From Octopus vulgaris (Eukaryota), in the NCBI GenBank assembly GCA_951406725.2, contig OX597842.1, positions 28,210,001-28,274,000 on the forward strand: a stretch of DNA of 64,000 bases, written 5' to 3'. Position 1 is the first letter of the stretch; every line of letters starts with the position of its first letter. The notes below the pieces were generated by a model. That model was given only the letters and a program-made list of their open reading frames with translations, was not told where the DNA came from and ran no database searches. Position numbers and translations under genes: made by a program. Below are positions 1,565 to 50,245 of this stretch, in pieces.

Positions 1565-1923
1565 TTTTGAACTGCCAGATGGAGAGGGGTGTCACCCTCG
1601 AGGTTCACCTTATTGACATCCATGCCTTTCTGTTTCAGGAGAAAATCAACAACTTCCGTGCGTCCATGAGTAGAGGCAAGATGTAGAGGGGTGTCACCTT
1701 GCTTGGTCTCAGCTTTAACATCCGTGTCTTTATGTTGCAGGAGAAGTTCAACAACGTCCTTGCTTCCAAAGCGACAGGCAAGATGGAGAGCTGTCCAATC
1801 ATGTTCCGACACAGCATTAACATCCGTGTCTTTATGTTTCAGGAGAAGTTCAACAACGTCCTTGCTTCCATACCAACAGGCAAGATGAAGAGCTGTTGCA
1901 CTAAAATTATTTCGCTGATTAAC
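1565..1923 (-). CDS. Gene A exon (equivalent to gene B exon 4): three 34-aa ankyrin repeats plus a half repeat
   Basis: AG acceptor and GTAAG donor. 359 nt, phase 0 to 2, open frame VNQRNNFSATALHLACWYGSKDVVELLLKHKDTDVNAVSEHDWTALHLACRFG...GDTPLHLAVQK. Same length as paralog exon 29039-29397. Confidence 0.9.
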
Positions 1924-2375: not shown

Positions 2376-2532
2376 CTGTAAATTGTTATTTTCTTTGCTA
2401 TTTAACAGGACTTTGACTACATCTTCATAGTTCTTCAACACAGCCAGATGTAGAGGTGTGTTGCCCCCTGAGTCCTGCTTATTAACATTTGCTCCACTGG
2501 AGACTAAGGAGGCCACAACATCAGTTTTGTGC
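2376..2532 (-). CDS. Gene A exon (equivalent to gene B exon 3), ankyrin repeat
   Basis: cctttcag acceptor and gtcagc donor. 157 nt, HKTDVVASLVSSGANVNKQDSGGNTPLHLAVLKNYEDVVKVLLNSKENNNLQ. Phase-compatible with its neighbours. Confidence 0.9.
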
Positions 2533-7807: not shown

Positions 7808-7962
7808 TTCTCCACTGCATAATGCAATGCTGTCCACTTCTTGTCTTCGTCGCTGATGTTGAGATCAGCGCCAGATTCTGTCAATAAGGTTATTAACTCT
7901 TTATTGCCTCGTACACAGGCAGCCATGAGTAATGTAAGGCCACCTGAAGTTTCTTGGTTGAC
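7808..7962 (-). CDS. Gene A exon (equivalent to gene B exon 2), ankyrin repeats
   Basis: ctcttcag acceptor and gtaagg donor. 155 nt, VNQETSGGLTLLMAACVRGNKELITLLTESGADLNISDEDKKWTALHYAVE. Confidence 0.88.
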
Positions 7963-8509: not shown

Positions 8510-8577
<68 letters not shown>

Positions 8578-8654: not shown

Positions 8655-8693
<39 letters not shown>

Positions 8694-15678: not shown

Positions 15679-17605
15679 AATGGCTGAAAGATGGGAAAAG
15701 ATGGGATTACGGCTTGAGGCAGCCTACGGTTAAATTTTGTAGAGAGAGAGATAGGAAAGATAAATCAAGTTATGGCGAAGGCTTGAAAGTAGCCTAAAAG
15801 GTTAAATTTTCGTAACTGTGTATGAATAAACTGAATGGCTGAAAGATGGGAAAAGATGGGATTACGGCTTGAGGCAGCCTACGGTTAAATTTTGTAGAGA
15901 GAGAGATAGGAAAGATAAATCAAGTTATGGCGAAGGCTTGAAAGTAGCCTAAAAGGTTAAATTTTCGTAACAGTGTATGAATAAACGTAGTAACAACGAA
16001 TAAAAAAATAGTAAGATAAATTTTTAAGAACTTGCTGCGGTCATCGAGCGGGAGTTGAAATTGAAGAAGAAAGTAAGTTGAACTGGGAATTTAAATTGCA
16101 GAATCGTAATGGTAATGGCGAAGAAGAAGAAGAGGAGGAAAAAGACCGCCAATGGCTGAAAGATGGGAAAAGATGGGATTACGGCTTGAGGCAGCCTACG
16201 GTTAAATTTTGTAGAGAGAGAGATAGGAAAGATAAATCAAGTTATGGCGAAGGCTTGAAAGTAGCCTAAAAGGTTAAATTTTCGTAACAGTGTATGAATA
16301 AACTGAATGGCTGAAAGATGGGAAAAGATGGGATTACGGCTTGAGGCAGCCTACGGTTAAATTTTGTAGAGAGAGAGAGATAGGAAAGATAAATCAAGTT
16401 ATGGCGAAGGCTTGAAAGTAGCCTAAAAAGGTTAAATTTTCGTAACAGTGTATGAATAAACTGAATGGCTGAAAGATGGGAAAAGATGGGATTACGGCTT
16501 GAGGCAGCCTACGGTTAAATTTTGTAGAGAGAGAGATAGGAAAGATAAATCAAGTTATGGCGAAGGCTTGAAAGTAGCCTAAAAGGTTAAATTTTCGTAA
16601 CAGTGTATGAATAAACTGAATGGCTGAAAGATGGGAAAAGATGGGATTACGGCTTGAGGCAGCCTACGGTTAAATTTTGTAGAGAGAGAGATAGGAAAGA
16701 TAAATCAAGTTATGGCGAAGGCTTGAAAGTAGCCTAAAAGGTTAAATTTTCGTAACAGTGTATGAATAAACGTAGTAACAACGAATAAAAAAATAGTAAG
16801 ATAAATTTTTAAGAACTTGCTGCGGTCATCGAGCGGGAGTTGAAATTGAAGAAGAAAGTAAGTTGAACTGGGAATTTAAATTGCAGAATCGTAATGGTAA
16901 TGGCGATTTTCAAGTTTTAGCATAAGAAGAAGAAGAGGAGGAAAAAGACCGCCAATGGCTGAAAGATGGGAAAAGATGGGATTACGGCTTGAGGCAGCCT
17001 ACGGTTAAATTTTGTAGAGAGAGAGATAGGAAAGATAAATCAAGTTATGGCGAAGGCTTGAAAGTAGCCTAAAAGGTTAAATTTTCGTAACAGTGTATGA
17101 ATAAACTGAATGGCTGAAAGATGGGAAAAGATGGGATTACGGCTTGAGGCAGCCTACGGTTAAATTTTGTAGAGAGAGAGATAGGAAAGATAAATCAAGT
17201 TATGGCGAAGGCTTGAAAGTAGCCTAAAAGGTTAAATTTTCGTAACAGTGTATGAATAAACTGAATGGCTGAAAGATGGGAAAAGATGGGATTACGGCTT
17301 GAGGCAGCCTACGGTTAAATTTTGTAGAGAGAGAGATAGGAAAGATAAATCAAGTTATGGCGAAGGCTTGAAAGTAGCCTAAAAGGTTAAATTTTCGTAA
17401 CAGTGTATGAATAAACGTAGTAACAACGAATAAAAAAATAGTAAGATAAATTTTTAAGAACTTGCTGCGGTCATCGAGCGGGAGTTGAAATTGAAGAAGA
17501 AAGTAAGTTGAACTGGGAATTTAAATTGCAGAATCGTAATGGTAATGGCGATTTTCAAGTTTTAGCATAAGAAGAAGAAGAGGAGGAAAAAGACCGCCAA
17601 TGGCT
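15679..17605 (-). repeat. Tandem 155-bp monomers with interleaved ~170-185-bp units at the 5' end of the RTE
   Basis: Nine near-identical aatggctgaaagatggg... units, arranged AAB-AAAAB-AAAB on the + strand. Confidence 0.9.
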
Positions 17606-21720: not shown

Positions 21721-21804
21721 ATGGATGTAAATAAGATTATAAGCAACATTCTGGATGGGGACTTTGAAGATGTTGAACGACTTATCAAAGAAAATCCTGA
21801 TCAA
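21721..21804 (+). CDS. Gene B coding exon 1 (N-terminal ankyrin cap)
   Basis: Polypyrimidine tract, aaag|acATG start, MDVNKIISNILDGDFEDVERLIKENPDQ, gtaagt donor. Phase 0 matches the next exon. Confidence 0.75.
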
Positions 21805-24343
21805 GTAAGTTTACTTTATATTGCTTCTTCAATGTTGAATGTTTGTTTATTATTTTATACACAATATTAAATGTTCCTAAATAACCAGATATATTTGTCC
21901 ATAATATTTCATTTCTTTCTTTACCTCTTACCCCTAATCCTCATCATTGTCACTTTTTATAAATATTCAACCAGACAATGAGGTATGCCAGAATTGATTT
22001 AAATATGAGTGAGAGAGAAACCCATCCTCACACACTGCAATGGAGTATTCTGGCAGGAAATATTCAGTCCAAGAGATGGGGGACATATGGACCCAATAGA
22101 TAAATGATGACTTTGTCAAGAAATTCTCTTGCCATACACAGTTAAAGGTTTTACCGACATCAAGGGCTACAGTATTTCTTTTGCAGAAGTTGTCAAACAT
22201 AACCAAAACACTGGGGAGTCACGTAGGAATCAAACCCCTGCTTGAACTGGCTTTATGGAACTGTTCTGGGGCTCATTGAATAGAGAAAGATACCCAAAGG
22301 GACAAAGATGATGGTTGTTTATGACTTTTTACTTCATAATTGAAATATTGGAAGTTAGAATGACTGGCTGGTAGTCAGCAGATAGGACACTATCAGCAAG
22401 AATTATAAAACAGGTCTTCTCTAAGAGAGTAATGCTACCCTTGGGTAGGGATTGCAAAGAATTTTATAAGGACCAGGGTGCCAAGGCGGCTGTGGTGGTA
22501 CAAATATATGAAACTCAATGTGTTGTTGAGTTTGGATCAGAGAACCATCATGATTAGGGAGTGGTGGGTGGAATGATTCTGTAAAATCTATAGAGATACT
22601 CTAAGTAAGAGACCAGAAAATGTGGCTTTTAATTTGGGAGGGAAGACAGCTGACAAATGGTGAAATGCAGAAAAAACATCCTTTAATTTCTTGATGACCA
22701 TCATACATGTATTTCAATGGTGGGTGAATGTCTGCCAGTTTAGTGAGGGTAGGTGTTTTCCTCAAGGAGAAGTCGATAGTGTTTTTTTGTACAGGTGTAA
22801 TACAGTTGTGTATGAACCACTCACACCTTCTTACATATTGTATGGCTACAAACTAATGTAAGCCCTGACACTGCTGCTGCCTCATTTAGGCTCAAAATTC
22901 TGATCCCTACTTTCAGAATATTTCTTATTTTCTCCATTGTTTCTTTTCATTTGTGTCTCCTCCTTTTCCATAGTTGCACATATTTAGCTGTGGTTGGTGT
23001 CGTTCCAAAGTTGTCGCAGATATCTAATCACAAATAAATACTTTGTAATAGATTCAGTGATTAACGTAAAAGGATTTTCAATCTTTTCCTTGAGCTTATG
23101 CATGAACTAAACAGTCTTTCTAAGCCTTTTTCACCTTGATTTACCTGTGCTCTACACCTTTCTTGTAGATTTGCTTTCATTCTTTTCCAAGTAGATCTCA
23201 TGTTGCTGTTTCACCAGACATATGACATCTGAAGATCCATGCTTCATTTCAAACATCCTGTTCTTCTCTCACCATCATTTAAATCTCCTTCATCATTATA
23301 GCATTAAATGAAAGTGCTACTATGCCAGGCATCAGTGATAACACAGTGTAGAATTTCATGAGCTTTACCAGGGAATACTAAACTAAAATCCAGTCTGATA
23401 TATTTAGAATCTACACAATTATTTCTGAGGGTTTTCACCCTTTATAGCTCTTCCCCTGTTCAGTTACTTCATACACCATCTAATGGTCTAATCTCTGCGG
23501 TTGGTTAGTGTAGATGGTTTCTCTTATTTACCCGTGTGTCTCCTATAAGGTACCAAGTTTGAAATCTTGTCAGTGTTCTCTTCAATTCATAATTGATATC
23601 ATACATACCAGTAATAAACTGGGAGATTTTCTCAACTGATTTTTTTTGGCCTTCACTCAGACAAAAGTGAGGTTGTAACTAAAGACAGACATTTCATGTT
23701 TCATAAGAAAGACTCTTCCATCTACCATGAAACGGTATTTGTACTGGTTTCCCTCGATATTGCTCTGTCCACTTCTATGAAAGGACAGGAAGCACAAATC
23801 ATGTCAAGAAAGACACCAATGGTCGCCTAAAGTGCATGTCATAGTATAACACAGAATAAAACTCATAAAGACATAAAAGGGAGCAGTAAAAGAACCACAA
23901 AAAGGAAAGGGTTCATAGGAACCTCAGATGTAGTGTTTCTGAATTACAGAAAGTGTGGTGTTTTTGAAGGATACAGCTAACAACCAATGTAGATAGTTTA
24001 TTCCATGCCTTGACAATTCTGAGCATAAAAATATTGTTTCTGATATCATGGAAACTGGAATGATTTTTTTATTTATTTTATAAGCATGTCTCAGAGTGGT
24101 AAAGATATTAAATTCCAGAAGTGGTCAAATTTGTTATTGGAAGATGAGGGATAATCTTGTGGGATCAAGTGAGTTGCTAGAAATGACAAAATTCTGTGTT
24201 GATGCATGGAGAAGCAATACATTTAAGAAATGATAAGTGATTGAGTGAGGCTAATTGTATGGTTGTACATCTATGGACAGCTTCCAGTAGATTGGTATTC
24301 TGGACAAAATGAGCATACCAGATTGGAGATGTAACCTATACAT

Positions 24344-24670
24344 GATGGCTGCCCCCTCGTTATCGAGTATGGCCATTGCACGAAACTTAACTGTTATTGA
24401 TGCTGTGATCGAATGTGACTTTTTAGCCCAGCTAAAGATCTACAATGTCTTGTACAAAATTGGCAACTAACACCTTTACTGGTAATAGCCAGCTGTAGTT
24501 GTAACTGGGCTTCATGTACCTTTGCATGTCGTTTAAGTCCTCCTGCCGAATTACACTCTCTTCCACACGCCCGACAGATATGATTAGTATGGTGTGTTAC
24601 ACCACCACCAGTGGCCAGGTGGTCACTCATCTGTCTCGTTTTTTGACTACGAAGATGACTCGTGAGTCAT
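24344..24670 (-). mobile_element. 3' fragment of an RTE-type LINE encoding two C2H2-like fingers, with a 9-bp TSD
   Basis: Flanked by cctatacat at 24335-24343 and 24671-24679. The paralogous site in gene A (about 8770-8800) is empty. Protein CRACGRECNSAGGLKRHAKVH...CQFCTRHCRSLAGLKSHIRSQH. Confidence 0.75.
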
Positions 24671-25603
24671 CCTATACATACATACATGCATACATATCAG
24701 CATATGTATAACAAAGTATGGATATAGTAATCTAATTAGGTAACAATGTCTAAGTTAAATGTTTGTGAGAATTTGAAGTTGTAGCTTTACTGTACTTAGA
24801 CCAGTGGTGGGACTTGAATGACTGGAACTATACATACATACATATATATATGATGGCTGCCCCCTCGTTATCGAGTATGGCCATTGTACGAAGCTTAATC
24901 AATGTTGTTATCGTGCAATGCCTGTGCAAGAAGATTTTTTTTAAAGTGCGGAAAGGCTGTCCACTGAGTCAATCCCACTCACTAAGCAACAGCAGCCATA
25001 ATCCGAAAAGAAGAACAAGTCAACATCATCGGTAACCACTGAGCTGCAGGTTTTATGTCAGAGTTATCCCAGTTACCTGAGTTACCTTCGCCTAGAAGGA
25101 TGCCCAAACAAAGGCTAGGAGTCCTTCACTCCCAATGGTTTAACCGCGCAATCGGGTATTCAGTCCGATTATTTCTATGTTCCCGTGCATGATACAGCCT
25201 TAAGACATTTATTGGAAGGCTGTTGACTCTCAAGAGTTCCTCCACCCTTACATACATACATACATACATACATGTGTGTGTGTATGTGTGTATATGTATA
25301 TGAAGGCGCATGACTCAATGGTTAGGGCAACAGGTTCACAATCAGGAGATAGTGAGTTTGATTCCCAGTCTGGGCTGTGTGTTGTATTCTTCAGCAAGAC
25401 ATTTTATTTCATGTTGCACACTGGTGTGTGTGTGTGTGTATCTTTCTTTCTTCGTCTTTCATATCTCTTTCTTTCACTCCAGCATCTTCTTTACTCTCTC
25501 TTCTCTTCTCTCTCTCTCTCTCTCTCTATTCTTCCCTCCTCTCTCTCTCTATCTCTCTCTCTCCTTTGATATATTTTATATATCTTCTCTTTCTTCTCTT
25601 CAG

Positions 25604-25755
25604 GTCAACCAAATAAACTCATACAGTAAAACTTTCTTAATGGCGGCTTGTGAACAGGGCAGCACAAGTCTCATAGACTTCTTGATAGAATCTGGAGCCA
25701 ATATAGACATGAGTGACAAAGGCAAGAATACAGCATTGCATTATGCTGTGGAAAG
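25604..25755 (+). CDS. Gene B exon 2, ankyrin repeats
   Basis: ctcttcag acceptor and gtaagg donor. VNQINSYSKTFLMAACEQGSTSLIDFLIESGANIDMSDKGKNTALHYAVE; phase 0 to 2. Confidence 0.9.
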
Positions 25756-26814
25756 GTAAGGCTTGAATTAATTAAAATCTTCAGATCTGCTTTTGTTTTG
25801 AAAGTTTTTGCAATTCCAGACTATTTGAATATCCAAAGATACCATAATAGTGGCAGTGTGACACGATAACAACATGATAGTAGTAACCAAATAACATCTT
25901 TTTCTCATTTTCTCCATGAATCCTCTTCATTGAATCACAAAAATCTTTTTCGTTATTTTTTGTCAAAACAGATATGATTAGTATGGTGCGTTACACCACC
26001 ACCAGTGGCCAGGTTGTCACTCATCTGTCTCGCTTTATGACTACGAAGATGACTCGTGAGTCATCCTATACATACATGCATACATATCAGTATATATATA
26101 ACAAAGTATGGAGATATTCTTTGAGAGCCAACAGTTCTTAAGATTGACCCATTCTGATTCAGTGCCTTCTCTTCATATTGATTATGGGGAGATCGATCAA
26201 TTTTTCTCCAAAGAAAATGTTATTTGAGATCTAAAGCAACAAGAAAGATTCTCTAGCTTGTTTTGACAGTAAATAATCTGTAAATTTCTTACAGAAATTA
26301 TTTCTCACCTCCATCTGCAACTCACTCAACACATTTTGAGATCTATTATATTTTGAATTGTGCTTCATAAGGTCATCTCTGGACAATAAAACATGTTTTG
26401 AAGTTCTTGTTAGTTTCTATAGCTCTGCAGTCACAAATTGTTCCAGAATTTTGCACAAACACACACACACCATCATTGTCATCGAATGTTCCTTTTCCAT
26501 GCTGGCATGGGTAGGAGGGTTTGATAGGAACAGACAAGTCAGAAGACCACACCAAACACTACTGTCTGCTTAGGTTTGGTTTCTATGGCTGGACGACCTT
26601 CCTAACACCAACCACTTGGCAGAGTGTACTGGATGCCTTTTACATGCCATCCGAACCAGTGAGGTCACCAGTTAATTGCGAGACAAAGACCTCTCGACTG
26701 GTTGAGGTGGTGAGGTGGGGGAGCTAATATTGCTGGAGAGAAAGGTGTCTTGCGTTAGAAGAGGGACATGGCTCCTTCAGATGGAGAAGACAGAGGAGGG
26801 AAACACTAGGTTAA

Positions 26815-27316
26815 AATCTAGTGTTTGGCCCAAGCAAAGAAAAAAGGAAAAAAATAGTGTAATAGGTGTGAAACAACATGTAGTAAACGAATATGAAAAA
26901 GAAAAATATGGCGAACGGGAGGTGGGGAGACGACTCGGAAAATTCAAATCTCACCACTTCCCCGTTCGTCGGCGAATTTTTTGTTCTTCATTTTCGTTTT
27001 TTACACATTATTTTACACCCGGTACTCTACTTTTGTTCAATTTTTGTGACGGGGCGGGTGGGTTGGGTGCGGACTCGGATGATTCACACGATCCGGTAAC
27101 CCCACTCAACAACCGGTCCCAAAACTGAAAACAAAAAGTGTAACAGGTGTAAAACAACATGTAGTTTTCGGATCCTGTGAGATTGATCGTGTGAATTTTC
27201 CGAGTCGTCTCCACCGCCCCTCGTTCGCCAACGTATTTTTTTTTTTACATATTCGTTTTACATTTTATTTTACACCTATTGCACAATTTTTTTTTGCTCG
27301 AGTCAAACACTGGAGT
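26815..27316. mobile_element. Fold-back MITE flanked by TTAA
   Basis: TTAA-aatctagtgtttggcccaagcaaa ... tttgctcgagtcaaacactggagt-TTAA. Long internal inverted arms (ggagacgactcggaaaattca / tgaattttccgagtcgtctcc). Confidence 0.7.
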
Positions 27317-27319
27317 TTA

Positions 27320-27360
<41 letters not shown>

Positions 27361-27926
27361 AATATATATATGTATACACACACACATATATATAATAAAT
27401 ATTTGTGTGTTTATATATTCATTTATGTGTGTTATATGACCGCCATACTTAACTGTTTCTTTTGGCGGTAAAAATACGCCTCGTTGCCCTTAACAACAAG
27501 CTTTCTCTTGCATAGTCTGTTGCTATGACAACATTACATTTGCAGACGTAGTTTTCCCGCCAATTACGACGTGCTGCTGTTGTTGTTTTTTTTTAGATTG
27601 ATGAGAAATCTGCTATCAATTAGTTTGTCTATAATTTTCAGACATTCCATCTTTCGCAAAAGGATTACAATACATTTTTCAATGTATACCTAATATATAG
27701 ATACTAACAACGGTACTTAATCCTTGTTTTGTATTGTACACTCGCTGGGATAAAAATATTTATACTTTATACCCTCACCTATTAATATGAGTATACACAC
27801 ACACGTACACATTTGTTTACTGTGTATTAACGATTATACGTATTTCAGTGGCTCATATTTCTCTGTCTGTCTGTCTCTCTCTATATATACATATATATAT
27901 ATATACATACATACACATACATGCAA

Positions 27927-27961
<35 letters not shown>

Positions 27962-28251
27962 CACATACACATATACACCTGTATAATATTATTGACTTTG
28001 ACATTTCAACTAGCGATATATACCGGTGATATATAATGTACGTGTGTGTGTGTATATATATATATATGCGTCCATATGGGCCCCACGACGAATTTGTTTC
28101 CTTATAACTTTGAGACAAATTGATATTTAATGAAATTTCTTTGACAAAAATGCTTCAGATGATGAAGATTCCAATTATATCGGAAATTGTTGTAAAAACA
28201 AATTTTCAAACTTTCTCAAAATTCACCCAAATCCGTTTTGTTTTTCTATAA

Positions 28252-28308
<57 letters not shown>

Positions 28309-28431
28309 CATACACGCACACACGAGGCTGTAGTATACATAGGTTTTTATGCATTTAATGGAACACGAGTGTATATTTGATGTAATTATTAAGTGAATGT
28401 GATGTTTTATGTTTGTTTTTCTTCCTTTCAG

Positions 28432-28588
28432 CCACAAAAAGGCTGCTGTGGCCTTATTAGTCTCCAGGGGAGCAAATGTTAATAAGCAGGACTCAGGGGG
28501 CGAAACACCTCTACATCTGGCTGTGAGGAAGAACTATGAAGATGTAGTCAAAGTCCTGTTAAATAGCAAAGAAAATAACAATTTACAG
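28432..28588 (+). CDS. Gene B exon 3, ankyrin repeat
   Basis: cctttcag acceptor and gtcagc donor. 157 nt, HKKAAVALLVSRGANVNKQDSGGETPLHLAVRKNYEDVVKVLLNSKENNNLQ. Confidence 0.92.
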
Positions 28589-28596
28589 GTCAGCGA

Positions 28597-28628
<32 letters not shown>

Positions 28629-29038
28629 ATAATGATATGTATGTTGGTTTGTGTTATATGTATATGAAACAGTTTATATTTATATTTTTTTAATTAAAAA
28701 CTTTTCTTCAGCTCACACAGACCTGTACATACATACACAAATATACACACACATAAACGCATATATACACAAAAATGCATAAACAAATGATCCGTGAAGA
28801 TATAAAACACGTATGTATATATAGGTATTTATGTATATATGTATGTGCGAGAGTGTATATATATGCATACACATATGTGTGTGTGTATAGATACATTATA
28901 AATCTCATTTATTTTCCCCTCACCTTCATTCCACCTGTTTAAATTAATCTGATTCTGTTTTTCTGACATTTTTCATTTTTTTTCCTTCTTCTCCCAATAA
29001 ACACCATCTTTAATGTCTTTATTGTTTATCTTTTTTAG

Positions 29039-29397
29039 GTTAATCAGCAAAGGAGAGACGGTTGGATAGCTCTCCATTTTCCCTGTTGCTGTGGAAGAAA
29101 GGACGTTGTTGAACTTCCCCTGCAACAGAATGGCATCGATGTTAATGCTGTGGAGAACAAAGGTTGGACAGCTCTCCATGTTGCCTGTCGCTATGGAAGC
29201 AAGGACGTTGTTGAACTTCTCCTGAAACATAAAGACACGGATGTTAATGCTGAGACCAAGCAAGGTCACACCCCTCTACATCTTGCCTCTTTTCATGGAC
29301 GCAAGGATGTTGTTGATTTTCTCCTGCAACAGAATGGCATCGATGTCAATAAGGTGAACCTCGAGGGTGACACCCCTCTCCATCTGGCAGTTCAAAA
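29039..29397 (+). CDS. Gene B exon 4, three 34-aa ankyrin repeats plus a half repeat
   Basis: ttttag acceptor and gtaagt donor. 359 nt, VNQQRRDGWIALHFPCCCGRKD...GWTALHVACRYG...GHTPLHLASFHG...GDTPLHLAVQK. Confidence 0.92.
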
Positions 29398-30289
29398 GTA
29401 AGTCCCCAATGGATTTGGATTATCCAAATCTGTTTCTTTAATGTTTGTTTTCTTGTTTCGAGTCATTCATGTCATAATCCCACCATGGGTCGTCATGCTT
29501 CACCCCTCTCTCTCTCTCACTCACTCTAATGACACTGTAATCTAACTTCATTAATTAATCATCATAATTATTGTTGTTGTTGTTGTTGTTACCTGACTGG
29601 ATTCTTTACTTCATCTCATCCTTCGTTACCTCAACGTTACAGGTTCAAATCCTCTCCCTTCTTCCTTTCATTCCATGTAAAACACCTCACCCCCCACCTT
29701 CTCTTGAAATTTTCCTCTTTCCTCTGGCCCTGGGCTAAATGCAGAATCATCCCCTTACTTTGATCCGTTTGTGTTCCAAGTTCAACTCCTGGGCTCAAAA
29801 TCTGTACCAGTAATATCCAGGGGTTCATTTAATAAATTGTCCCCCCTCTTTACTCCTGTTCTTGTGTCTGATTACTGTTGGAAAATATTCAGATAAAATT
29901 TACAAGTGTTGATATCTGGACGGTTTCCTAGTCTTCTGATTGTTTACGGAATATGTGGTGTAATTTTTAATTATGTATCTTATGCAAATAACCTACATCT
30001 TCTTTACACTGGTTATGGTAAATCTGGGTTTTGAGTTTATACCCTTCTTATAAATTTTATCTCAATATTTCCCAACCTTTGCCTTTTATTAACCCTTACG
30101 TTTTTCTACCCTTTTAGGCCCCTCTTTTTTGTATATTACGAATTACCCTTCCAACCCCTTTCGTTGTATTAACAATTAATATTATCTTAATTTTAATGAT
30201 TCTTAATACTATTTTAGTTAACAGTATGTATGTGTATGTATATATATATATATATTGTGTGCGTGGTTGTTTTCGGGTATATGTATTTG

Positions 30290-30336
<47 letters not shown>

Positions 30337-31099
30337 CTATATATATGGATATATATGGCTATATACGTACGTAGTTATGTATGTAAGCATGTATGTGTGT
30401 ATGTAAGCTTGCTAACCCTGCTCTTTGCTTCTTAGTCGATTAGACTTAGAGCCATTCACGTCATTGCTATGTCCGTCTGTTTCTCTACGCCACATGGCTG
30501 AAAACCACCACTTGGCTATTTTTTCTATATTTCCTATCTCTGAACTTTCTTGTATAGATTATTTCATTCAACTAGATGCTACATATTAATTCTGTGTATC
30601 GTCATCGACCAGTAAATAAAATATATTTTTCCGTAGTAAATATATAGGTCTTGAATTTATTCTTCATCTCTTTATGAACTCTTGTAAATAACATACACGC
30701 AGCCACATCAACACCTTGTACTGGCTATATATCCTCGGTAAGAAAAGAATATTTTGAAGGATGCCGTATGCTGACAGCTAACAGCTGACTCAGGTGGTTT
30801 GTTGTGTGCTTAAATAATTCTGAGTGAGATAAAGTATTTCGTAAAGTCATGGGTGCTGCACTGTTTTTTATTTTAATTTTATAAGAATGTCTGCTGCTGG
30901 CTGAGATTTTGAATTCAAAAATGTTGCCAAAGTTGTTGTTGGCAAGATTATGTATAAACCTAAGGGATTATACCAGATTAGCTGCTAGACTTCAAAACTT
31001 TAGTGTGCTGATACCCAGAGAAACAATACATTCAGTATATGGTGACTAACAGAGAGTATTTGCCTGGTTTGGAGATCAGATTGAAGCAAAGGTATATAG

Positions 31100-33050
31100 C
31101 ATCTAATAAGATGTCAATACCCAGAGAAGCAATATATTCAAGATATGGTAACTAAGAGAGAGCATTTGCCTTGTTGTTCTTCTCTGAATAGATATTCTGG
31201 ACAGGATGGGGATTCCAGATTGGAAATGTAAACTGTAAGTGTAGACGTATGATAGCCAGGCATAATTTTAAACTGATAACTTGACAAATTGACGGGCAGA
31301 GGTTTTACTGAGCAATACTTTGATATTTCTGATGATTTTTAGAAATGTGGTTCATGCATTACACATCATTGTTGACATTAATGTCACGGTCAAGTTCACC
31401 TGCAGACTTTTGAAGTTTGCTGTTCTGGAGAGAGTTGGTAAATTTTGGAATTTTCATTCCAAAGTGTATAGTGGTGCACCATTCTATGGCCAGCTTGAGT
31501 TTGCAATCAGCAGTGCATTGCTGCATTGTATCCAGGTCAGATTGAAGAAAGGATCTATAGCAGATAGTTGGCATGTATTTAGCTGATACATAGAAGGAGC
31601 AAGAGAAAACCAAGAGTAGTTCCTTGTAGGTCTTCTGTGTTGGGTGCAGAATGTTAGCTTAGTGTTGTGACTCTGTCTTTTCAACTGAGAATGTAAGTAT
31701 TTTAAGCAGTTATATAATTTAGTCCTCGCACCCATTCCAGACAGTTGTGCCATAATTGATCACTGTGGCATGGAATTAAAGACTTTGGTGAAGTTGATAG
31801 AGATAATATCCACCCATGAACCACCATCTGGGAAGAAATTCAATGCAGCAACAGTTAGGGATAAATCGAAATGGTTGGAGTTTGAATAAGCTTATGAGGG
31901 TTCCAGATGTTCCAAAATGTCTTCCTGTAGATCCATTAATTCTGTGAGACTGACTGGATGGTAGTCAACAGGGGATGTCTGGTCACTCCCTTTTTGAACG
32001 GGGAAGAATACTGGCAACTTTCCATTAAACTGGGCTAAGTGTGAATTAGAAGAGGACAAAAAGCTGGTGCAGTAGAAAAAGGGTGCACCCTTTGAGAAGC
32101 AGATGAATAACACCACCAAGACAAGAGGAAGCATAATTGCACATATGCTTCAATTAGCATTGCGATATTGCAGAATTCAACAGGTTTTATGGAATTTGAT
32201 CTCAGTAGCAGTGAAAACGGTACATTTGTCACTCCTTTAATATGGCAGGGTACCATGTTGCACCTTCTTCTTTTATCCCCTGTTCTTTTATCGCGTCCAG
32301 CATCTCATCGATATTTCCTGGCAGTCTCTCACATATTCAGGCTTCTAAAACGTTTGCATGGCACCGACACTTTTTCATGAATTAAGGATGGATGTGCTGA
32401 AGGTTAGTCTTGACATCTCCAGAAGTGTAAAGTCGAAGCCAGTCAGGGAACTATACCTCAGTACAGTCGGAGTTCCAGGAAAACGAAGCAGTTTGGAGGT
32501 TATGGTGGCTTTTCTTTCAATCCATTAGAAATATTTTTGCAAGATTGGAGTATGATCAGAGTCACCTAAGGGTTCATCACTATTGAGGCTGATAATTTCA
32601 GGAGCAGTGGTAAATAGCAGATCGAAAGTGTTGTTACCTCTTTGGGAGAGAGGACTACTTGGGATTAGTTTGAATCTAACATTAAATGAAGGAAATCGGT
32701 TGCATTTTGTGGCCAGTGAAAGATTTCCTAATCAATATTGGGTAATTGAAATCACAAGTATGAGAACATAGGTGACCATTTTCATAGATGCAGCTCTAAA
32801 AAGTTTCGAGGATGGTAAATGTTGATGTACTTTTATGTTGCAGAAAAATTCCTCTTGTGACTGGTTTAAATCTTCACAAGCAATTTCTGAAAAGCTTGAG
32901 CAAGCATAGACCATCGCACCACCTCCAAGGTAATGAAAGAGGTCTTTGTGAAAGAAAATGTAGCCAGCCATGCTAAAAACACCATTGCACAATAAAGAAT
33001 GTGTCCAGGTTTAACAAATGAGATTGGAATCAGTACTTTTAACTTAGGAA
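31100..33050 (-). pseudogene. Old degenerate CR1/Jockey-like LINE
   Basis: Broken frames with PVQKGSDQTSPVDYHPVSLT and LQSDLDTMQQ..LKLAIEWCTTIHFG, homologous to the CR1 ORF at 49103-50156. Confidence 0.65.
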
Positions 33051-33678
33051 TCAAAAATAGTGAACTTTATTGCATAAACTGTGGGTATTTTTAAACAATA
33101 ATTTGTATCTCGATTTAAATCTGTCATGGTTCATGGAAGAGGATATCCTCAGACCAGTTTGCATCCCTTTTTCATCTGGTATTGAGTCATGATTTACGGG
33201 ACCTACAATATGTAACTTCAGGTGTGTATCAGGTGGTGAATGACGAAGAGCTCAATTTATCACACCTGTCCTTATAAGAAGCTAAATAGTATGCACATAG
33301 CTCAGTAGAAGGTGAATCTAACTCGTTTGGGTTTTGATCCAATCAACTGAGGCAAATAAAATTGTTTTGGAGGAACACATCTGAAGTTGATAAGATGTAG
33401 ATCAATGAACATGGACTCACCTATAACAAGGGGCAGGTTTGTATGCAGGGCAAACCTAGACTGAAGTGTTTTGCTAAAGAACTTTACACATTGCCTTGTC
33501 CAGGAATTGAAACCGCAATTTTACTCTATGAGTCCAAAAGCCTAACAACTTAGCCATGCACCTCACTCTGGTCAGTCTGGTGTTTCATAATATTCTGTAC
33601 TGTAAACATAAAACAAACATGTAATATTTGTTAGAAATGAATGTTATAGGTGGGATGTGTTTTATGTTTTTTCCACAG

Positions 33679-33818
33679 ATGTATGCTTTGTGAAGAGAAT
33701 GAAGCCAGCATGGAGTTACAACCCTGTGCACATACTGTTTTATGTGAAGATTGTAGCAAAATTCAACTTAACAGATGCCCCAAGTGTAAAACATGTATAG
33801 AAAGCAAAAGGAGAGTTG
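33679..33818 (+). CDS. Gene B exon 5, C3HC4 RING finger (MIB/IAP-type spacing)
   Basis: ttccacag acceptor and gtaaga donor. CMLC-x11-CAH-x3-CEDC-x7-CPKC. Phase 2 in matches exon 4. Confidence 0.9.
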
Positions 33819-35077
33819 GTAAGAATATGATTTGATGATCTGTCTGTTTGTCACATGACATTATGGAATGGAATAATGTTGTATCGACCCAGATCTGTCA
33901 TAATCTGACAGACGTATGATAAAAGATGTCCCAGGTGTCTTTTCTCTTTGATAGTATATCCATGACTACACCCACTGAATATTGTCTTTATCCAAGTAGG
34001 AAACCTGTCCCACATCAAAAGAGTACTGTCTGCAACATAAGACTAATACGTTTTACTGAAATATAAATGAAATATCAATAAATCTCCAAGGTCCCTTCAG
34101 TAAACATCAACTTTTTATATTCAGTTGTCAGCTTTTATATGAGGTTAATGATTTATAAGTATCTTGGGAAACTGATAATTAAGGACAACAGTACTTCCTA
34201 CAACATCACAGTCAGCTTTGTAATGTAAGAATTTCAATGACAAAATCTCAACTGAGAGTTTAAGGATCTGACTCTTAGCGAGTCTTATATATTCTTGAGA
34301 ATGAATTCTAGTGTCCCATTTCAGATATAACTCCTTTGCAATAATGTGTAGATAAACAGTTTTAAGTTAAGGAGGTTTTATACAAATGTAATGTTTCAGG
34401 ATACCTGTTATCACTTTCTGCTCCACCTGTGTAGAACTAATCATTGCTCACCTGGAAAAAGAAAAAGCTGCTTATTAAGGAGGATGAATGACATTGAAAT
34501 ATCTTCAGATCTTTCCTGAATCAGGTGGTATTCTGGTGAAGTGTGATGTGGGCAGTTAAAATTAAAGATTACCAACAGTAACATATAAAAATGAGAGCTG
34601 GGGTATGTTTATCCTTCCTGAAGCAATGTGTCATGCCTTTGTGGCCAGATCTTTGAAGACCTGTTTGGTTGAGACTGGAATTTAGTAGAAGATGAGAAGA
34701 ATATTGGTTAGTGAAGGTTCGAGATGAGAGGACAATGGCATGTCATATGACCAGCACAGACATAACAAAAGAAAGACAAAACTAAGAGAAAAAGAGTGTT
34801 ATGAAGTGATAACTAAGTGAGAGAATTTCAGAATTGTTAGATTAGTATATAGGATGTCTTAATAGAAAGATGAGATTTAGAAAGGTTTGCCTATTTTGCT
34901 GCGGTTCTAAATATTGAACTATTATATAGTAACAGCTTAGAAAGTGTTGACCGAAAGCATAGTGGTCACCAATTGACTATTGATGATATGAATGCCTTAC
35001 AAAAATGGAATATAGATTATTAAAAGAGACAAAGAAATTTTACTATGAAGTATAAAACTTTGAAATGCTTATATCAG

Positions 35078-35128
35078 TGTGTCCAAAGTCTGAAGAAAAA
35101 GCAATCAAGACGGTTGCAGAATCTGTTG
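35078..35128 (+). CDS. Gene B micro-exon 6 (linker, 51 nt)
   Basis: atatcag acceptor and gtgagt donor. Phase 1-1, open frame (V)CPKSEEKAIKTVAESV. Confidence 0.6.
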
Positions 35129-35469
35129 GTGAGTATAAAATAACTGTAATTGATTTCTATAAATTTTACCTTCACCTGAGATATATTATTTGTGTGAATG
35201 ACTGAGAACAAGTTCCATTGTTACATTTCTTTTGAATGGTTAGCGATAAAAGTAATTCTATTCGTTACCTACAAATGCAAGAATATCCAATAAAGGGGTT
35301 TTATAGAAATATGGAAACATGAGACACAGGAAAAATGTCTTTCACGATGAGGCCAAAATACAAAAGATAAAATATAAACCCTGAAGCTGTTCTCTCCCCA
35401 TAATGAGATACATTCACTTTTCTTTCATCTCATTGTTGTCTCTCTCTCTCTCCTTCCCTGTTTCTTCCT

Positions 35470-35509
<40 letters not shown>

Positions 35510-35925
35510 GCATCTACATGTAGCAGCCTCTGTACTTTCCAGTCGTGTAACAACATGAATTGTATTTAAAATATTGATATTACAGAAATTTAATAAAATG
35601 TCCAGCTGTGTTGGCTCTGTTGCTAAAATGGTTAAATTAGAAAAAAAAACAATAGAGTTAATATTGTCTTTTGAATGAAGGAAGAAAAACATTTTGTTGT
35701 TTAATGGTAAACAGGTGAGTTAATGACAGTGTTTGTTTGTTGTACATTTTCAATAAGTTTACTGATTATTGTTGTTGATGTTCTTGTTGAACAAGATGGT
35801 TAAGTTGAAAGCTTACAAGTGTGATCACCCTGTCTTTTTTTTCACTGTTAGTAAATCTATCATTACATCCATTAAACGATGTCTTTGTCCAAGTAAGAAG
35901 CTTTGGTCTGCTGCTGAGACAATTG

Positions 35926-35972
<47 letters not shown>

Positions 35973-36329
35973 TAAGATGGACACTGGTTGCAAGATACAA
36001 AACAATCGATGTTATTGTCCTCATCATTTACAGTCTGCTCTCCTTGCTTCCATGTAATGGATGGGTGATCACTGTCCAAGTCAGTTCTTGTTCAGAGTTA
36101 CTGTCCCCCTTGACTGCTTGAGAAACACATCTCCCTTAAACATTCCACCTTTTCTATGGTGGGATGCCCTCCCCAACACCAACCACTTCATAAAGAGTCC
36201 TGAGTACATTTTAATGTGGCACAAGCACTAGAAAGATTTTCATGTGTCCAACATTGAAACTGGAATAGCTGTAGGTTGCACACTATCAGTCACTTGGTTT
36301 GTGCTTGTTATGGGGATCGGCAGATTTAT

Positions 36330-36720
36330 GAGAAGAAATTACTCAGGCGAAATCACCTCAGAAGACATTCATGGATGACATAAAAATGCTAACAAGAGAT
36401 CCAAAGTATATGCAATCAGTCCAAGATAGATTGGATGGACTAATTAATTGCTCAAGAATGCTGTTTGAAACAAATAATGAATGCATTCTGACATTTGTGA
36501 AAGGTCAACAGAAGCAAGTGAAGTTCAAAATAGCAGGAGAAACGATGCGAAAGGTTAAAGAGTAACTTGTAAAACGTTTTGGACTGTGGTAGACGATCTC
36601 ATTGTCCGATAAGAGTAGAGGCATTGATGTCATTGCAGAAACCGAGGATGGGCAATAAGCATTTGCCAAGTCAAAACTTCTGGGCAAAAACAAGATTTGG
36701 TGCTTGAAGTTTGATCTATA
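36330..36720 (+). pseudogene. Degenerate R2/HERO-like non-LTR RT fragment
   Basis: KTFMDDIKML...FKIAGETM...LLGKNKIWCL residues, interrupted by stops. Confidence 0.45.
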
Positions 36721-37479
36721 TCACCATCTTGATAATATATTCTTAAATATCACTTCTTTTGTACCATTTCAGATGTTTTTCCTTTGCGATAATCTGTGTA
36801 TGAACATTTGCATGTTGTTAAAGATGTTTTGTGCAAGTATACAGTGTTTTAGGATACTTGCTATCACTTTCTGTTTCACCTGTGTAGAACTAATCATTGC
36901 TCATCAGGAAAGAAAAGCATTTCATTAAGGAGTCCTTAAATATTTCCTGAATCAGATGAAATTCTGGTGAACTGTGAGTTGCATAGTTTAAAATTAAAGA
37001 TTAAAAGCAGCAACGTTTGACAAAGATAACAGGTGTGACATGAGTTTGTGTCAAGGTCGTTGATGACCAGCTTGGTTGACATCAGAATTAAGCAAAAGAT
37101 GAGGGGAATGTTGATTAAGTGAAGTCCAGTGGTGAGGGGACAATGCCATGTCATAGGTTTAGCATGGATACAAGAGAGAAGAAAGATAAAAGGTGTTAAC
37201 ATGTGATCATTAAATAAGATGATTGCAACATTGTTAGATTAAGTAGGATGTCTTAATAGAAAAAGGAGGCTTAGGAAGGTCAGTCTATTTTGTTATGGAC
37301 CTAAATATTGAGCCATTATATAGGACCACTGTAGGAAGTATAAAAGTGTCAACCAAACCTATAGTGGTCAGAAGTTGTCCATTGATGATAGGAATGTCTT
37401 ACAATAATAAAATATAAACCATTAACAGAGATCAGGAAATTGTGCTATGAAGTGTAAAATTTGGAAATATTTATTTCAG

Positions 37480-37536
37480 AGCTGAAGCATTTTGATATGG
37501 TGTCCCAAAAGTTGGCAGGTAAATGGATGGAACTTG
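37480..37536 (+). CDS. Gene B micro-exon 7 (start of the death domain, 57 nt)
   Basis: atttcag acceptor and gtgagt donor. Phase 1-1, (E)LKHFDMVSQKLAGKWMEL(G), matching the death-domain LG.xW..LGR.LG motif. Confidence 0.82.
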
Positions 37537-38524
37537 GTGAGTATAAAATACCCAATTTCTATAAATTTTGCTTTCAGCTAAACTTTTGTTTGTTTGAATG
37601 ACTGAGAACCGGTTCCATTCCTAATTTCCAATTGAAAGTTTAGCTATAAAGTAAAGCTATCACTGAAATTTCATAAAATATCTACAGACGTCAGCACGGT
37701 TGTAAAATGTATAAATTAGAAGGTCCAGTAGAGTTAATACTATCGTTTGTAAAAGGGGACTCAAAAATATTGTTGTTTAAGAGTAAACAGGTGAATTAAT
37801 GACAATGTTTTTGCTTGTTTACACTTTTAGTAAGTTTACTAGTAGAGTGTTGTTGTTGATGTTTATTTCGGCAGATATCTGCCTTAATCTGGCAGAATTA
37901 AGGGGAAAGGGTTCCAGATGTGCCATCGCTCTTTCTCTTGGGTGAAGAGGACCACGTTATCAAATGTAACCTTTTTAAAATGAGAGTGTGCATTGTGTGG
38001 GACATGTTGTCATCTCTCCCCTGGCCAGTCTGTTTTTCTATATTTATTGTAATTCTTTAGTCCCAGGTCAACATATATTTCCTGTCTCTATAGAAGACAG
38101 GCCCCATTGTTGATTGTGTTCATGGCTGGATTGAACTCAGCATTGTAAGTTAATGAAACACTCATTTATATTAGAAAAAAAGAATCTCAACAGAAAATTC
38201 AAACTCAACTTGATCTTGTTTCTCAATTGAAATCATTTCACTCTCCTTTACATTACAAATGTCACGTGGAAAGGCATGAACATCACAATATCCCATTTTC
38301 CATTCTCCGACAGTTTAACGCAACATAAAATATCATTTATACAATGCTCCTATTATTTACAGTAATGTCTTCTACCTCCCTATGGTACCTATATATATCT
38401 AGATAGAGTGAAGCATAGAGAAATGTCTTTACCAGGTACATTGAGCAGTGCTGGGGATTAGATTTGAACCTTTGATCCCTGACTCAAGGGATCATGACAA
38501 TATCCCCTGAGTCAGCTGATAGAA

Positions 38525-39400
38525 ACCATCATCATCATCATTTGACGTCTGTTTTCCATGCTGGCATGGGTTGGACTGTTTGACTGAGGTCTGGAGAGCC
38601 AGTGGCTGCACCAGGCTCCAATCTGATCTGGCAGAGTTTCTACAGCTGGATGCCCTTCCTAATGCCAGCCACTCCGAGAGTGTAGTGGCTGCTTTTTATG
38701 TGTCACCAGTACAGAAGCCAGTCAGGTGGACCTAGCATCAGTCATGTTCGGATGGCCTTTTTACGTGCCACCAACACAAGGAGTCAGTCAGATGACACTG
38801 GCATCGACTACATTCGGATGATGGTTTTTATGTGCCACCAGAACGGGGGCTAGTCATGGGGCACTGGCCACAGCTGCAATTTTGGTTTTACTTGACTCAA
38901 CAGGTCTTCTCAAGCATATCATGTCACCCGATGCATTAAGGATACTCTTAAATGGGCCGGACATGCAACACTGGCATCGGCCATGGCTGCGATCTCACTT
39001 TAGTTGCTGGGTCTTCTCAATCACAGTATATTTCCAAAGGTCTCGGTCTCCTGCCATTGCCTCTGTGAGGCCCAATGTTCAAAGGCCATGCTTCACCATC
39101 TCATTCCATGTCTTCCTGGGTCAACCTCTTCCACAGCTTCGTTCTACAGTTAGGGAGTGGCACTTCCTCACAGTTGTCCTCATCCATACGTAACACGTGA
39201 CCATACCAGCGTAGTCATCTCTCTTGCACACCACATTTGATGCTTCTCATGTCCAACTTTCCTCTCAGGGTGTTTACACTGTGTCATGTATGCACACAGA
39301 CATTCCACATCCAGTGGATCATACTACCTTCATTTCTGTCAAGCCTACGCTTGTCCTCAGCAGTCATGGCCCATGTTTCACTGCCATGTAGCATGGCAGT
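38525..39400 (-). mobile_element. Degenerate 5'-truncated RTE LINE
   Basis: (ATC)n tail, the same 3'UTR, and reverse-strand RWYGHV/RPRKT remnants. Confidence 0.75.
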
Positions 39401-40449
39401 TCACACTCAGAAATGATTTATCTAAATTAAGAAAGGACATCATCTACAACATTGCCAGCTTGCTATACCTCTGGGTATCATACAAAATATACCAGTCATA
39501 TACTGGGATAAAAGGAATCCACTAACACCAGGTCCATTATCATCATCACCTTACATCCATTTTTCTAAGTTTGTAATGGTCAGACGACTTCTCCCAGAGT
39601 TGTTGTGGTCCTTTGTCCAGTTTGATCGCTTGTTTCTTTCCACTTGAATTCCAGGCACTTCTTTACCCAGATTTCATCTGCCATGTCCCTTCTATATCTA
39701 TACCATTATCTTTTTTCTTGTACACTATCACAGATTCTTCTGAGATCCAGTTATTTGGCTCCAAGTTTTCAACACATTAACATTACACTTCTAGTGATGT
39801 CTGCTCACCTCATTTCCTGGCAGTTTCCATTGCATCTTTCACATTCTACGTAACATTGCATGAGGTGTATTTGTAAAGTGCAATCTCTCCCTCATATGGA
39901 GACAGAATCCCTTAGTTGCCAGTAGACATAACTCCCTGTACATTTTTCATCTCCTTTTCCTTCTGTACTTTCAGAATAGTTTCCTCTACTTCTAATTCTG
40001 TCCTTTAGGTAACAGAAACTATCAACTATGTCTTTCATACTTGTTCCTATGAACTATTCCTGTATATTTGCCACATACAAAGTCCTTCCTCAGCCCTAAC
40101 CTTAACCTGCCCTCCCTGTAAACTTGCTTGTTTGTGAATGCAGTGATTCTATCAGGACCCGAGTGTTGTAGGTGTATGGTGTAGATGTTGGTAAAACTCT
40201 TCTCATTGCTTTGTTTACTCTAGGGCCTCTCCTGTATTAGATTCTTTGAAATTGTGGCCTTGATCCAGTGAAAGTTCTTGTTATAAGTCATGAATCCAAA
40301 AACCTTAAGCCAGTGCCCTCTAAAATAAGTGATATTTACCTAACAGTATTATATTTTTACTTTGGGGTGGTTGAAATCATTCAGGTACACAATCCCCACT
40401 TTTGAGATATTTCTGAATGTTGATAATTTTTAAATATTTATTAATCATA

Positions 40450-40895
40450 GGTGGAAAGACATCGCAAATGACTATTTCAGGCATTGATCACAGGATGTTA
40501 TCAAACGACTGAGATTGTATTCCTCCAAAGTGTCTCTGGAGTAACGTTACTCAACAAGGTGTGCAGGCTGGAGATTTGGGGTCTCTCCAGGTCAAGTGAC
40601 TGCTTCTCTGCATTGAGAATTCACAGCTCCAGTAATCCTGGCATGTGATTAAAATATCACAGGAAAGAACCACAAGAGGGATTCTTCAAGCTGAGCCAAC
40701 CGACAGGAGACCTAGGGGTAGAGCAAGAATGAAATGGTTGGATGATATCCATAGTTTCAATTGGCCATGCTTGGAAATCCTTTCAGAAATTCTAATGAAG
40801 GTTGCCTCTGATAGGATCATATGAAGGAGGTGCCTGAAGACTCTTCCCCTACAACCCTCCTATGAATAGAGGGCAGAGAAAATGGACGGTTGGAT
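40450..40895 (+). mobile_element. Degenerate RTE 3' fragment of a different family
   Basis: Remnant RRPRGRARMKWLDDI...VASDR, typical of an RTE C-terminus. Confidence 0.45.
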
Positions 40896-41234
40896 GAAAT
40901 TATCTGTTGGTGGTCTTTGTCAATTCTTTAGGCTCTCATACACTGCTACCCACACAAACACTTCTCCTGCCAGTTGTTCACCAGACATTTTCTCATGTGT
41001 AATTTTCAATTCTTTAAAATATTCTTCTCCTTCTCCAGCCTTTATTTCAAATTGTTTGATATTTTTATCAACATCTTTAGAAATAGATAACAATGTCTTC
41101 TAATTTCCCTGTTTCTTAAGTATTTCTCATTCTTCTATTCACATAATTTCTTTGTCCTAATTAATACAGCCTACAGTACACAGGTTTTATATTATCGTTA
41201 ATGCTGTTGCAATTATTTCTTATTTCTTTTGCAG

Positions 41235-41440
41235 GAAGGGAATTAGGAATTCAACAAATTGACATGGATATCATCAGGCATGACTATCCTCTTGACGTTG
41301 TGGAACAAGGCTTCCAGATGCTGCTCAAATGGTATAGAGATAATGATCCAGAGAAACGTACACTTCAAATATTAAAAGCAGCTCTTGAAAGAACTGAATG
41401 TGACGATGCACTCGAATGTTTATCATCAGAATTCAATTGA
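41235..41440 (+). CDS. Gene B last coding exon, death domain
   Basis: ttttgcag acceptor, phase 1. GRELGIQQIDMDIIRHDYPLDVVEQGFQMLLKWYRDNDPEKRTLQILKAALERTECDDALECLSSEFN*. The eight exons sum to 1206 nt (401 aa plus stop). Confidence 0.9.
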
Positions 41441-41618: not shown

Positions 41619-42583
41619 GGATCTTTACCTTTTGACCAGCAGATTTAGAAAATGATTTTTTGGAACTAAACACTTTCAAACTTCGTATTCTGGTAGAATG
41701 TGTCGTATAAAACATCTTTTACTCTTAGCGTTTTTGAGAAAAGTTTATATTTATAAAGTTATTTCGTGTAAAATTTGTCGTATTTCGGTAATTTCAACCA
41801 ATCAATGGCGTGTATTCATCTGAATAAAATTACTGCCGTTGTTTGTCAACAACAACAACTTCTGGCGGTGTATATTTCGTTTGTCACTGTTATTTATGAC
41901 ATATTTCATCTCAGTTATGTTTGTATGAAAAACGAGTCTATCTGAAACATGTTTACTTCATGGCACCACCAGAATCGTTCGTGCATTTCTACTGGTTTTA
42001 GTTATGTTTTTTCCTGTTTTTCAGCTACTATTTTCGCTAAGACTTTTTTAACCCTAACCCTAAAACCTTAGCCCTGACACTAAAACCCTAGCCCTAACAC
42101 TAAAACCTTAACTCTAACCCTAAAACCCTAACCCTAACCCTAAAACCTTAGCCCTGACACTAAAACCCTAGCCCTAACACTAAAACCTTAACTCTAACCC
42201 TAACCCTAACCCTAACACCTTAAAGCTAAAACCACTACAAACGCACGAACGATGTCATAAATAACAACAACAAACGAAATATATACCACCAGTTGTTGTT
42301 GACAAACATCATCATCATCATCATCATCATCCTTTAACGTCCGCTTTGCATGCTAGCATGGGTTAGCAGTAATTTTATTCAGCTGAATACACATCATTGA
42401 TTGGTCGAAATTACTGAAATACGACAAATTTAACACGAAATAACTTTGTAAATATAAACTTTTCTCAAAAACGCTAAGAGTAAAAGATGTTTTATACGAC
42501 ACATTCTACCAGAATACGAAGTTTGAAAGTGTTTAGTTACAAGAAATTATTTTCTAAATCTGCCGGTCGAAAGGTAAAGATCC
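41619..42583. mobile_element. Non-autonomous DNA transposon with long (>200 bp) TIRs and an 8-bp TSD
   Basis: GGATCTTTACC...GGTAAAGATCC termini. TSD GGATTTGG at 41611-41618 and 42584-42591. Internal CCCTAA-like repeats at about 42048-42230. Confidence 0.88.
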
Positions 42584-50156: not shown

Positions 50157-50184
50157 CATATATATATACACATATATATGTATG

Positions 50185-50245
<61 letters not shown>

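Follow-up and report, generated by a model that had tools for sequence, protein, structure and literature searches.

An octopus gene family joining the ankyrin-RING half of Mind bomb 2 to a death domain, with a candidate role in intracellular sensing

We analysed a stretch of 64,000 nucleotides (nt) of the Octopus vulgaris genome (contig C29 of genome G000, positions 28210001-28274000; hereafter the window), in which an eight-exon gene is predicted to encode ankyrin repeats, a C3HC4 RING and a death domain (DD) in a single chain. Positions are those of the window unless a contig is named. The gene belongs to a large octopus family consisting of the back half of Mind bomb 2 (MIB2) with a DD in place of the last RING, and comparison of the copies leads us to put at about even odds (roughly 0.5) that its members act as variable intracellular sensors or adaptors, likely in immunity. 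We favour variable immune sensors because the ankyrin exons differ far more between copies than the introns do. What is new is a receptor-like mode of evolution in a new arrangement of known domains, and the family is of more interest than the single shortened copy in the window.

All exon borders of the window gene, which lies within 21721-41440 on the forward strand (Table 1), are GT-AG, the intron phases are 0, 2, 0, 2, 1, 1 and 1, and the frame is free of stops over 1206 nt, or 401 amino acids (aa). Searched exon by exon with Pfam, E2-E4 match Ank families, E5 matches zf-C3HC4_3 (35.5 bits, cut-off 27 bits) and E8 matches Death (31.2 bits, cut-off 22.6 bits), all above their cut-offs. Borders, phases and scores agree with the predicted splice chain of about 401 aa that an earlier note had drawn from the letters of the window. 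An AG acceptor directly 5' of the E1 ATG suggests an additional upstream exon. The public O. vulgaris model P0002 (CAI9744078.1, 'MIB2-like isoform X14') has, in a comparison by eye, identical letters at E2-E5, E7 and E8, and departs from the window chain in having a different first exon and in skipping E6, which is likely alternatively spliced. Its AlphaFold model contains six ankyrin helix pairs and one lone helix, in keeping with the roughly 6.5 repeats first counted, and a helical DD (pLDDT 61-76), while its RING region (pLDDT below 50) is unreliable. The 'MIB2-like' label that automated annotation had been expected to give is carried by P0002 and by family models in three Octopus species. 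The public model P0043 splices window E2-E5 to the DD of a downstream paralogue; P0001, P0043 and P0191 seem to string together exons of adjacent paralogues and are likely annotation artefacts.

The gene is far from single-copy. Genome G000 holds at least 134 matches to the DD exon (150 of 155 candidates scored), at least 126 to the tail exon of a full-length paralogue and at least 66 to the RING exon, these counts being lower bounds that include some broken copies. With two retrocopy arrays on contig C1 left out (23 tails and 18 DDs), 86 of 103 tail exons are each followed, on their own strand and at no more than 50 kb, by a distinct DD exon, against 5 in a strand-flipped control; 34 of the 86 pairs are on C31 and 28 on C29. 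In a DD-profile search that required shared words and scored 7999 candidates, 57 of 58 matches were labelled O. vulgaris, O. sinensis or O. bimaculoides, a figure from which absence elsewhere, squid included, cannot be read; 41 of the 58 also carry ankyrin-type and RING motifs under a loose pattern. Long ankyrin proteins dominated the matches when 1.84 billion representatives were searched with HMMER, which makes that search uninformative on the range of the family, and two ESM Atlas searches (best scores 0.82 and 0.84) yielded leads only, with the Death family in none of the displayed clusters.

Indirect evidence from other copies places RING and DD in one chain and not in separate genes, as the proposed fusion implied. 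In an O. sinensis paralogue, all 21 RefSeq isoform proteins join the two, through 21 different linkers that combine 17-aa and 12-aa cassettes with an alternative acceptor located 15 nt inside the first DD exon; RefSeq isoform sets of such kind rest on RNA-seq. Moreover, an intronless, stop-ridden copy on C1 holds the ankyrin tail, a degenerate RING, the linker and both DD exons within ~900 bp, as expected of a retrocopy of a family mRNA. Also on C1, tandem arrays at 216.93-216.97 Mb (~3.5 kb units) and 102.70-102.74 Mb (~2 kb units) contain intronless, stop-bearing family copies (one unit read).

The linkers bear on the possibility that the family forms a non-immune identity code, with variable intracellular adaptors acting in neurons or gametes. 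Cephalopods have other gene expansions comparable to such a code, and 21 distinct RING-to-DD linkers at one locus would suit it, as would the Notch heritage of MIB (10.1101/2024.03.01.582834; here and below, papers given by DOI or PMC number are cited for the portions of their text available). The ligand-binding MZM/REP modules are gone from the family, however, and young copies that diverge this quickly are more in line with conflict than with a stable code, so that we consider an identity code very improbable.

The exon structure points to the parent of the family. On C26 there is a MIB2-like gene, which encodes two MIB/HERC2 domains, ankyrins and two RINGs. Between its first ankyrin exon and its RING1 lie eight introns, and each has a counterpart of the same place and phase in family paralogue B, as matched by eye. 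For the RING of the window gene the score is 131 with RING1 and 67 with RING2, and RING1 is also the closer of the two for 39 of the 40 RINGs fetched, the exception being a broken frame. Judged by these introns and RINGs, the family descends from the C-terminal half of MIB2, which agrees with the likeness to the back half of Mind bomb seen at first. MIB1 was rejected as the parent: in the part covered of a MIB1-like gene on C13, the first ankyrin exons are broken elsewhere (a comparison that stops short of the RING exons of MIB1). The ankyrin region, the RING1 and, in full-length paralogues, the MIB-type tail are shared with MIB2 and MIB1, and in one paralogue residues 3-124 match the ankyrin structure of human MIB1 (8v0e).

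The N-terminal half has been lost, as had appeared from the window: Pfam scans of P0002, P0014, P0213 and P0233 found no MIB/HERC2, ZZ or REP modules, and of at least 10 genome matches to PF06701 (a lower bound) none is on C29. At the other end, the terminal coiled coil and catalytic RING of MIB1/2 are replaced by cassette and DD exons. With these losses, a DD instead, and dozens of copies, the family does not qualify as a Mind bomb; its parts are known, and their arrangement is new. Sister genes at C27:36.356-36.374 Mb and C20:45.04-45.06 Mb have family-type expanded ankyrin exons and RING1-RING2 as their last domains; the stretches fetched contain no DD, and the C27 sister shares the family start exon. 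In the simplest history, a MIB2 duplicate would first have lost its N-terminal part, DD exons would then have taken the place of its last RING exon, and expansion would have come last. An unrooted tree of 26 rows, some of them badly trimmed, places MIB2 and the C26 paralogues together (100/99). At C26:0.75-1.33 Mb we also observed a cluster of MIB2-like ANK-RING-RING paralogues without DD, two of which have an extra RING1-type exon. The family offers a clear case in which a conserved single enzyme became a diversifying family by a swap of its terminal catalytic exon, with the DD-less sisters persisting.

Divergence between copies is strongly uneven along the gene. Against six close copies, each aligned over 10-18 kb of intron with simple repeats masked, the introns of the window copy differ by 1.2-1.7%, E4 by 12.5-19.6% (five copies) and the DD exon E8 by 4.9-13.6% (six copies), while the RING exon differs by 1.4-2.9% from paralogues B, C, D and F and by 5-7% from E and the inverted left copy. 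The length of E4 equals 257 + 102k nt, with 2.5-5.5 repeat units in the 18 clean exons among 21 taken from 30 loci and ~9.5 in one more; the ankyrins proposed as variable in the earlier note do vary, in sequence and in repeat number. Tandem duplication of the E3-E4 block in some paralogues (C29:28.48, 28.05 and 28.275 Mb) is a second route to more ankyrin repeats. Binding-type positions in E4, which we take to be those randomised in DARPins, hold 4.35 residues per column versus 1.96 elsewhere (p 2e-6), and the nonsynonymous/synonymous (N/S) ratio of distinct variants is 2.55 at these positions (rough p 0.002) and 1.28 in the framework (p 0.17). The DD exons are mosaic, with 221 of 435 site pairs failing the four-gamete test, and their pN/pS is 1.4-2.7 by set; among 12 close copies, 29 of 67 DD positions are invariant, and the core is invariant and stop-free in all 12.

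Two alternatives draw on the same pattern. Under neutral birth and death, unstable tandem arrays would be reshaped by exon-limited conversion and unequal crossover, and many copies, including that of the window, would be decaying; raised pS in exons, mosaic exons, deletions, broken RINGs, stop-bearing copies and retrocopies all agree with this. We regard it as distinctly improbable, given that change is concentrated at binding-type positions, that frames are mostly open and that the family persists in three species. It is likewise improbable that the proteins are decoys or dominant negatives, whose varying DD and ankyrin surfaces would mimic host signalling proteins and absorb pathogen effectors or damp DD signalling without signalling themselves. 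A DD exon that diverges 4-9 times as much as the introns and is shuffled among copies, the loss of RING integrity in many copies and the action of mammalian MIB2 on RIPK1 and cFLIP (PMC7815719) are what decoys would lead one to expect, but no effector is known, and the invariant, stop-free DD core fits either reading.

In the sensor reading, which we prefer, the concave ankyrin face would bind variable targets, most likely pathogen-derived, and clustering would allow the DD to recruit DD adaptors of the FADD or RIPK1 type, leading to cell death or inflammation. The RING would be mainly a structural spacer or a weak accessory, and the cassette exons would tune the RING-to-DD distance. We infer every functional step of this scheme, from ligand and partner to tissue and infection response, and this includes the coupling of the DD to NF-kB or apoptosis adaptors that the earlier note proposed. 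A more specific form, which we put forward tentatively, is that octopuses possess a large intracellular immune receptor repertoire derived from MIB2, made of DARPin-like binders with copy-specific DDs and no nucleotide-binding switch, whose diversity would come from changes in repeat number, from gene conversion confined to exons and from cassette splicing.

The DD of P0002 matches PF00531 at 41.5 bits over profile positions 2-83 of 86. Its best matches in the PDB, Fas and RIPK1 (E ~1e-6 to 1e-5), are weak and non-discriminating, and the family lacks the kinase, transmembrane or leucine-rich repeat parts of RIPK1, Fas and PIDD; with alignment A4 as the query, the PDB yielded ankyrin proteins and nothing else. 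Among 10 non-family DD loci compared as possible donors, the strongest match was a PIDD-like DD on C10, whose E value of 7e-11 against a profile of 6 sequences does not suffice to identify it as the donor. As to candidate partners, a FADD-like frame with DED and DD lies at C26:2421482-2422057, ~90 kb from MIB2, and FADD homologues are reported in molluscs including a cephalopod (PMC11463336). Complex prediction with three copies each of a family DD (P0014 462-556) and the FADD-like DD gave a score of 0.27, short of the mark of 0.34, and speaks neither for nor against binding. On C14, two frames look by eye like CARD-DD.

Several observations weigh against the sensor reading. Ankyrin-3 scores nearly equal those of RIPK1 for the DD, and Pfam scans of the four family proteins named above found no nucleotide-binding or other switch domain, with neither NACHT/NB-ARC nor BIR present. 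A variable DD surface fits poorly with one fixed adaptor, and the N/S excess in the DD is non-significant on 12 loci (1.38, p 0.13). Synonymous sites also exceed introns (pS 0.04-0.17 in E4), so part of the signal is due to gene conversion in which more distant copies were the donors, and the p-values are rough because the copies recombine and are related. Of the 21 E4 exons, three had indels and were excluded, and two of these three contain stops. Finally, the tree mixes DD-bearing and RING-RING rows (3 changes) and leaves the order of events open.

The RING deserves separate treatment, as it had been proposed that it ubiquitinates the proteins bound by the ankyrins, and this part of the earlier note lacks support in that form. 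E5 has the eight zinc ligands of a C3HC4 RING at RING spacing, as described, but the family kept the RING1 homologue and not the RING that is catalytic in mammalian MIB1/2, which makes a ubiquitin ligase function doubtful. Activity of MIB1 relies on ccRING3, and its ANK-RING1-2 portion shows no self-ubiquitination with UbcH5B (Cao et al., 10.1101/2024.03.01.582834); the second RING of MIB2 is the RING3 homologue (same source), and ubiquitylation of cFLIP needs that second RING, a RING1 mutant being still active (PMC7815719). In the window RING, Pro follows ligand 7 and Lys follows ligand 8, and Lys stands at a usually hydrophobic site (by eye, against MIB1 P993/I994/R996). The RING is broken with the frame still open in the left paralogue, in E, in F and at the P0014/P0005 locus.

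That the members are nonetheless active E3 ligases, with ankyrins that select the substrates, a RING that passes on ubiquitin and a DD that stands in for the MIB coiled coil as dimeriser or recruiter, would be consistent with other features of the RINGs. Of the 38 family RING exons fetched, 34 keep the eight zinc ligands, 24 of them with His and 10 with Asp, and one of the four incomplete RINGs may simply be cut by the fetch window; Pro follows the seventh ligand in 22, and 17 resemble MIB1 RING3 in their Pro-x-Cys-Arg ending (x = I, V, M, L or E). The RING exon is also as conserved as the introns against four close copies. Set against the RING1 identity of almost every fetched RING, the mammalian experiments and the broken or altered RINGs, these features leave general E3 activity unlikely, though the conserved ligands, Pro-x-Cys-Arg endings and exon conservation mean that some members may have regained it. 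The 10 RINGs with Asp for His form a subgroup that is found mostly on C31 and ends in Pro-Val/Met-Cys-Arg.

Among known systems, the closest parallels in mode of evolution are fungal NLRs with highly conserved ANK, WD or TPR repeats (Podospora HET-type), whose ankyrin repeats show repeat-number variation, shuffling and selection on the binding face (PMC4986451). The octopus family shares this variation, the shuffling within and between loci and, on rough statistics, the binding-face selection, but lacks NACHT/NB-ARC, carries its repeats N-terminally and is of unrelated origin. Molluscan BIR-DD-RING IAPs (PMC8917759) are likewise an expanded molluscan family joining a DD to an IAP/MIB-type RING, whereas the octopus family has ankyrins for BIR and places the RING before the DD; the same source counts 10-11 IAP genes in Octopus. 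The family also differs from MIB1 in that the concave ankyrin face, highly conserved there (10.1101/2024.03.01.582834), is variable. We found no description of the family or its architecture in the literature, where genome-paper tables could hold the expansion under another name; the available portions of PMC6522055, PMC4199593 and PMC8166818 do not describe it, and octopus and MIB2 coincided only in unrelated mentions in the available text of one paper (10.1101/046789). Cephalopod immunity is poorly mapped, and labels such as 'MIB2-like' and 'ankyrin-3-like' have concealed the family. Its expression, selection and binding are directly testable, since ~86 or more loci are named and both the hypervariable exon and the output domain are defined.

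The window copy itself is a shortened member. Full-length paralogues have three extra exons between E4 and the RING, encoding the last ankyrin repeats and the MIB-type tail (~140 aa), and this full ankyrin region and tail, present in paralogues B, C, D and F, is missing here. Alignment with paralogue B ends at ~30346 and restarts at 30406, with ~7.5 kb of B skipped. The reading frame survives because both flanking introns are phase 2, and the loss of the three exons leaves the last ankyrin repeat half-made and uncapped, so that the half repeat of the window copy is a deletion scar. The inverted left copy has the same junction, and copies at 28.04 and 27.92 Mb likewise lack the tail exon. An assembly artefact is ruled out by this junction in a 96%-identical copy and by the absence of the tail exon from copy E and at 27.92 Mb, and tblastn found no hidden remnants of the three lost exons. 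E7 has lost 15 nt between two AGs and is shorter than in paralogues, its length being that of the alternative-acceptor form among the O. sinensis RefSeq isoforms. E6 sits in a 1-kb unit 69% identical to the unit with E7, so the cassette arose by duplication of the region of the first DD exon. In the first unit of E4, the window copy has a Leu-to-Pro change found in 0 of 17 other copies. It is possible, though we lean the other way, that this shorter, uncapped variant is non-functional and decaying.

Table 1. Features of the window, with exons numbered along the window gene.
Feature	Position	Strand	Remarks
E1	21721..21804	+	ATG and N-terminal helical cap; RefSeq paralogues share E1 as start exon
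E2	25604..25755	+	ankyrin repeats
E3	28432..28588	+	ankyrin repeats
E4	29039..29397	+	hypervariable ankyrin exon, 3.5 units of 102 nt
Deletion junction (approximate)	30320..30406	+	~7-7.5 kb with three exons gone, between two phase-2 introns
E5	33679..33818	+	C3HC4 RING, eight zinc ligands all present; homologue of MIB2 RING1
E6	35078..35128	+	17-aa linker cassette exon; 1-6 copies in most close paralogues
E7	37480..37536	+	first DD exon
E8	41235..41440	+	second DD exon, with stop codon
Inverted paralogue, E2 equivalent	7808..7962	-	
Inverted paralogue, E3 equivalent	2376..2532	-	
Inverted paralogue, E4 equivalent	1565..1923	-	same deletion as window copy
Assembly gap, 100 N	11031-11130		
Long interspersed element (LINE)	11862-15164	-	1100-aa endonuclease-reverse transcriptase (RT) frame
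LINE	53693-58726	-	two-open-reading-frame (ORF) element, ORF2 1137 aa
LINE	49106-50275	-	partial RT
Miniature inverted-repeat transposable element (MITE)-like element	41619-42583		just 3' of stop codon; 218-nt inverted arms, 94% complementary, flanking CCCTAA-like repeats
Tandem arrays	15673-17605, 46787-48364, 50426-51290, 3900-5830, 58900-62850		units ~155, 61, 94 and 100 bp

The inverted left paralogue spans 1565-11030 on the reverse strand together with C29:28201054-28207048 and is ~96% identical to the window copy over long stretches. Its RING, from which six residues are gone, two of them ligands, is located together with the DD exons 3-9 kb beyond the left edge of the window; the copy has no cassette exon, and its E1 was not found, the match to intron 1 stopping at the N gap. 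On the other side, 60824-64000 matches 2785-5831 at 91% and resembles intron 2 of the next paralogue; the E3 of that copy falls immediately beyond the right edge of the window, and its E1 and E2 were not found. Pieces related to the MITE-like element occur at 6910-7107 and 52498-52698.

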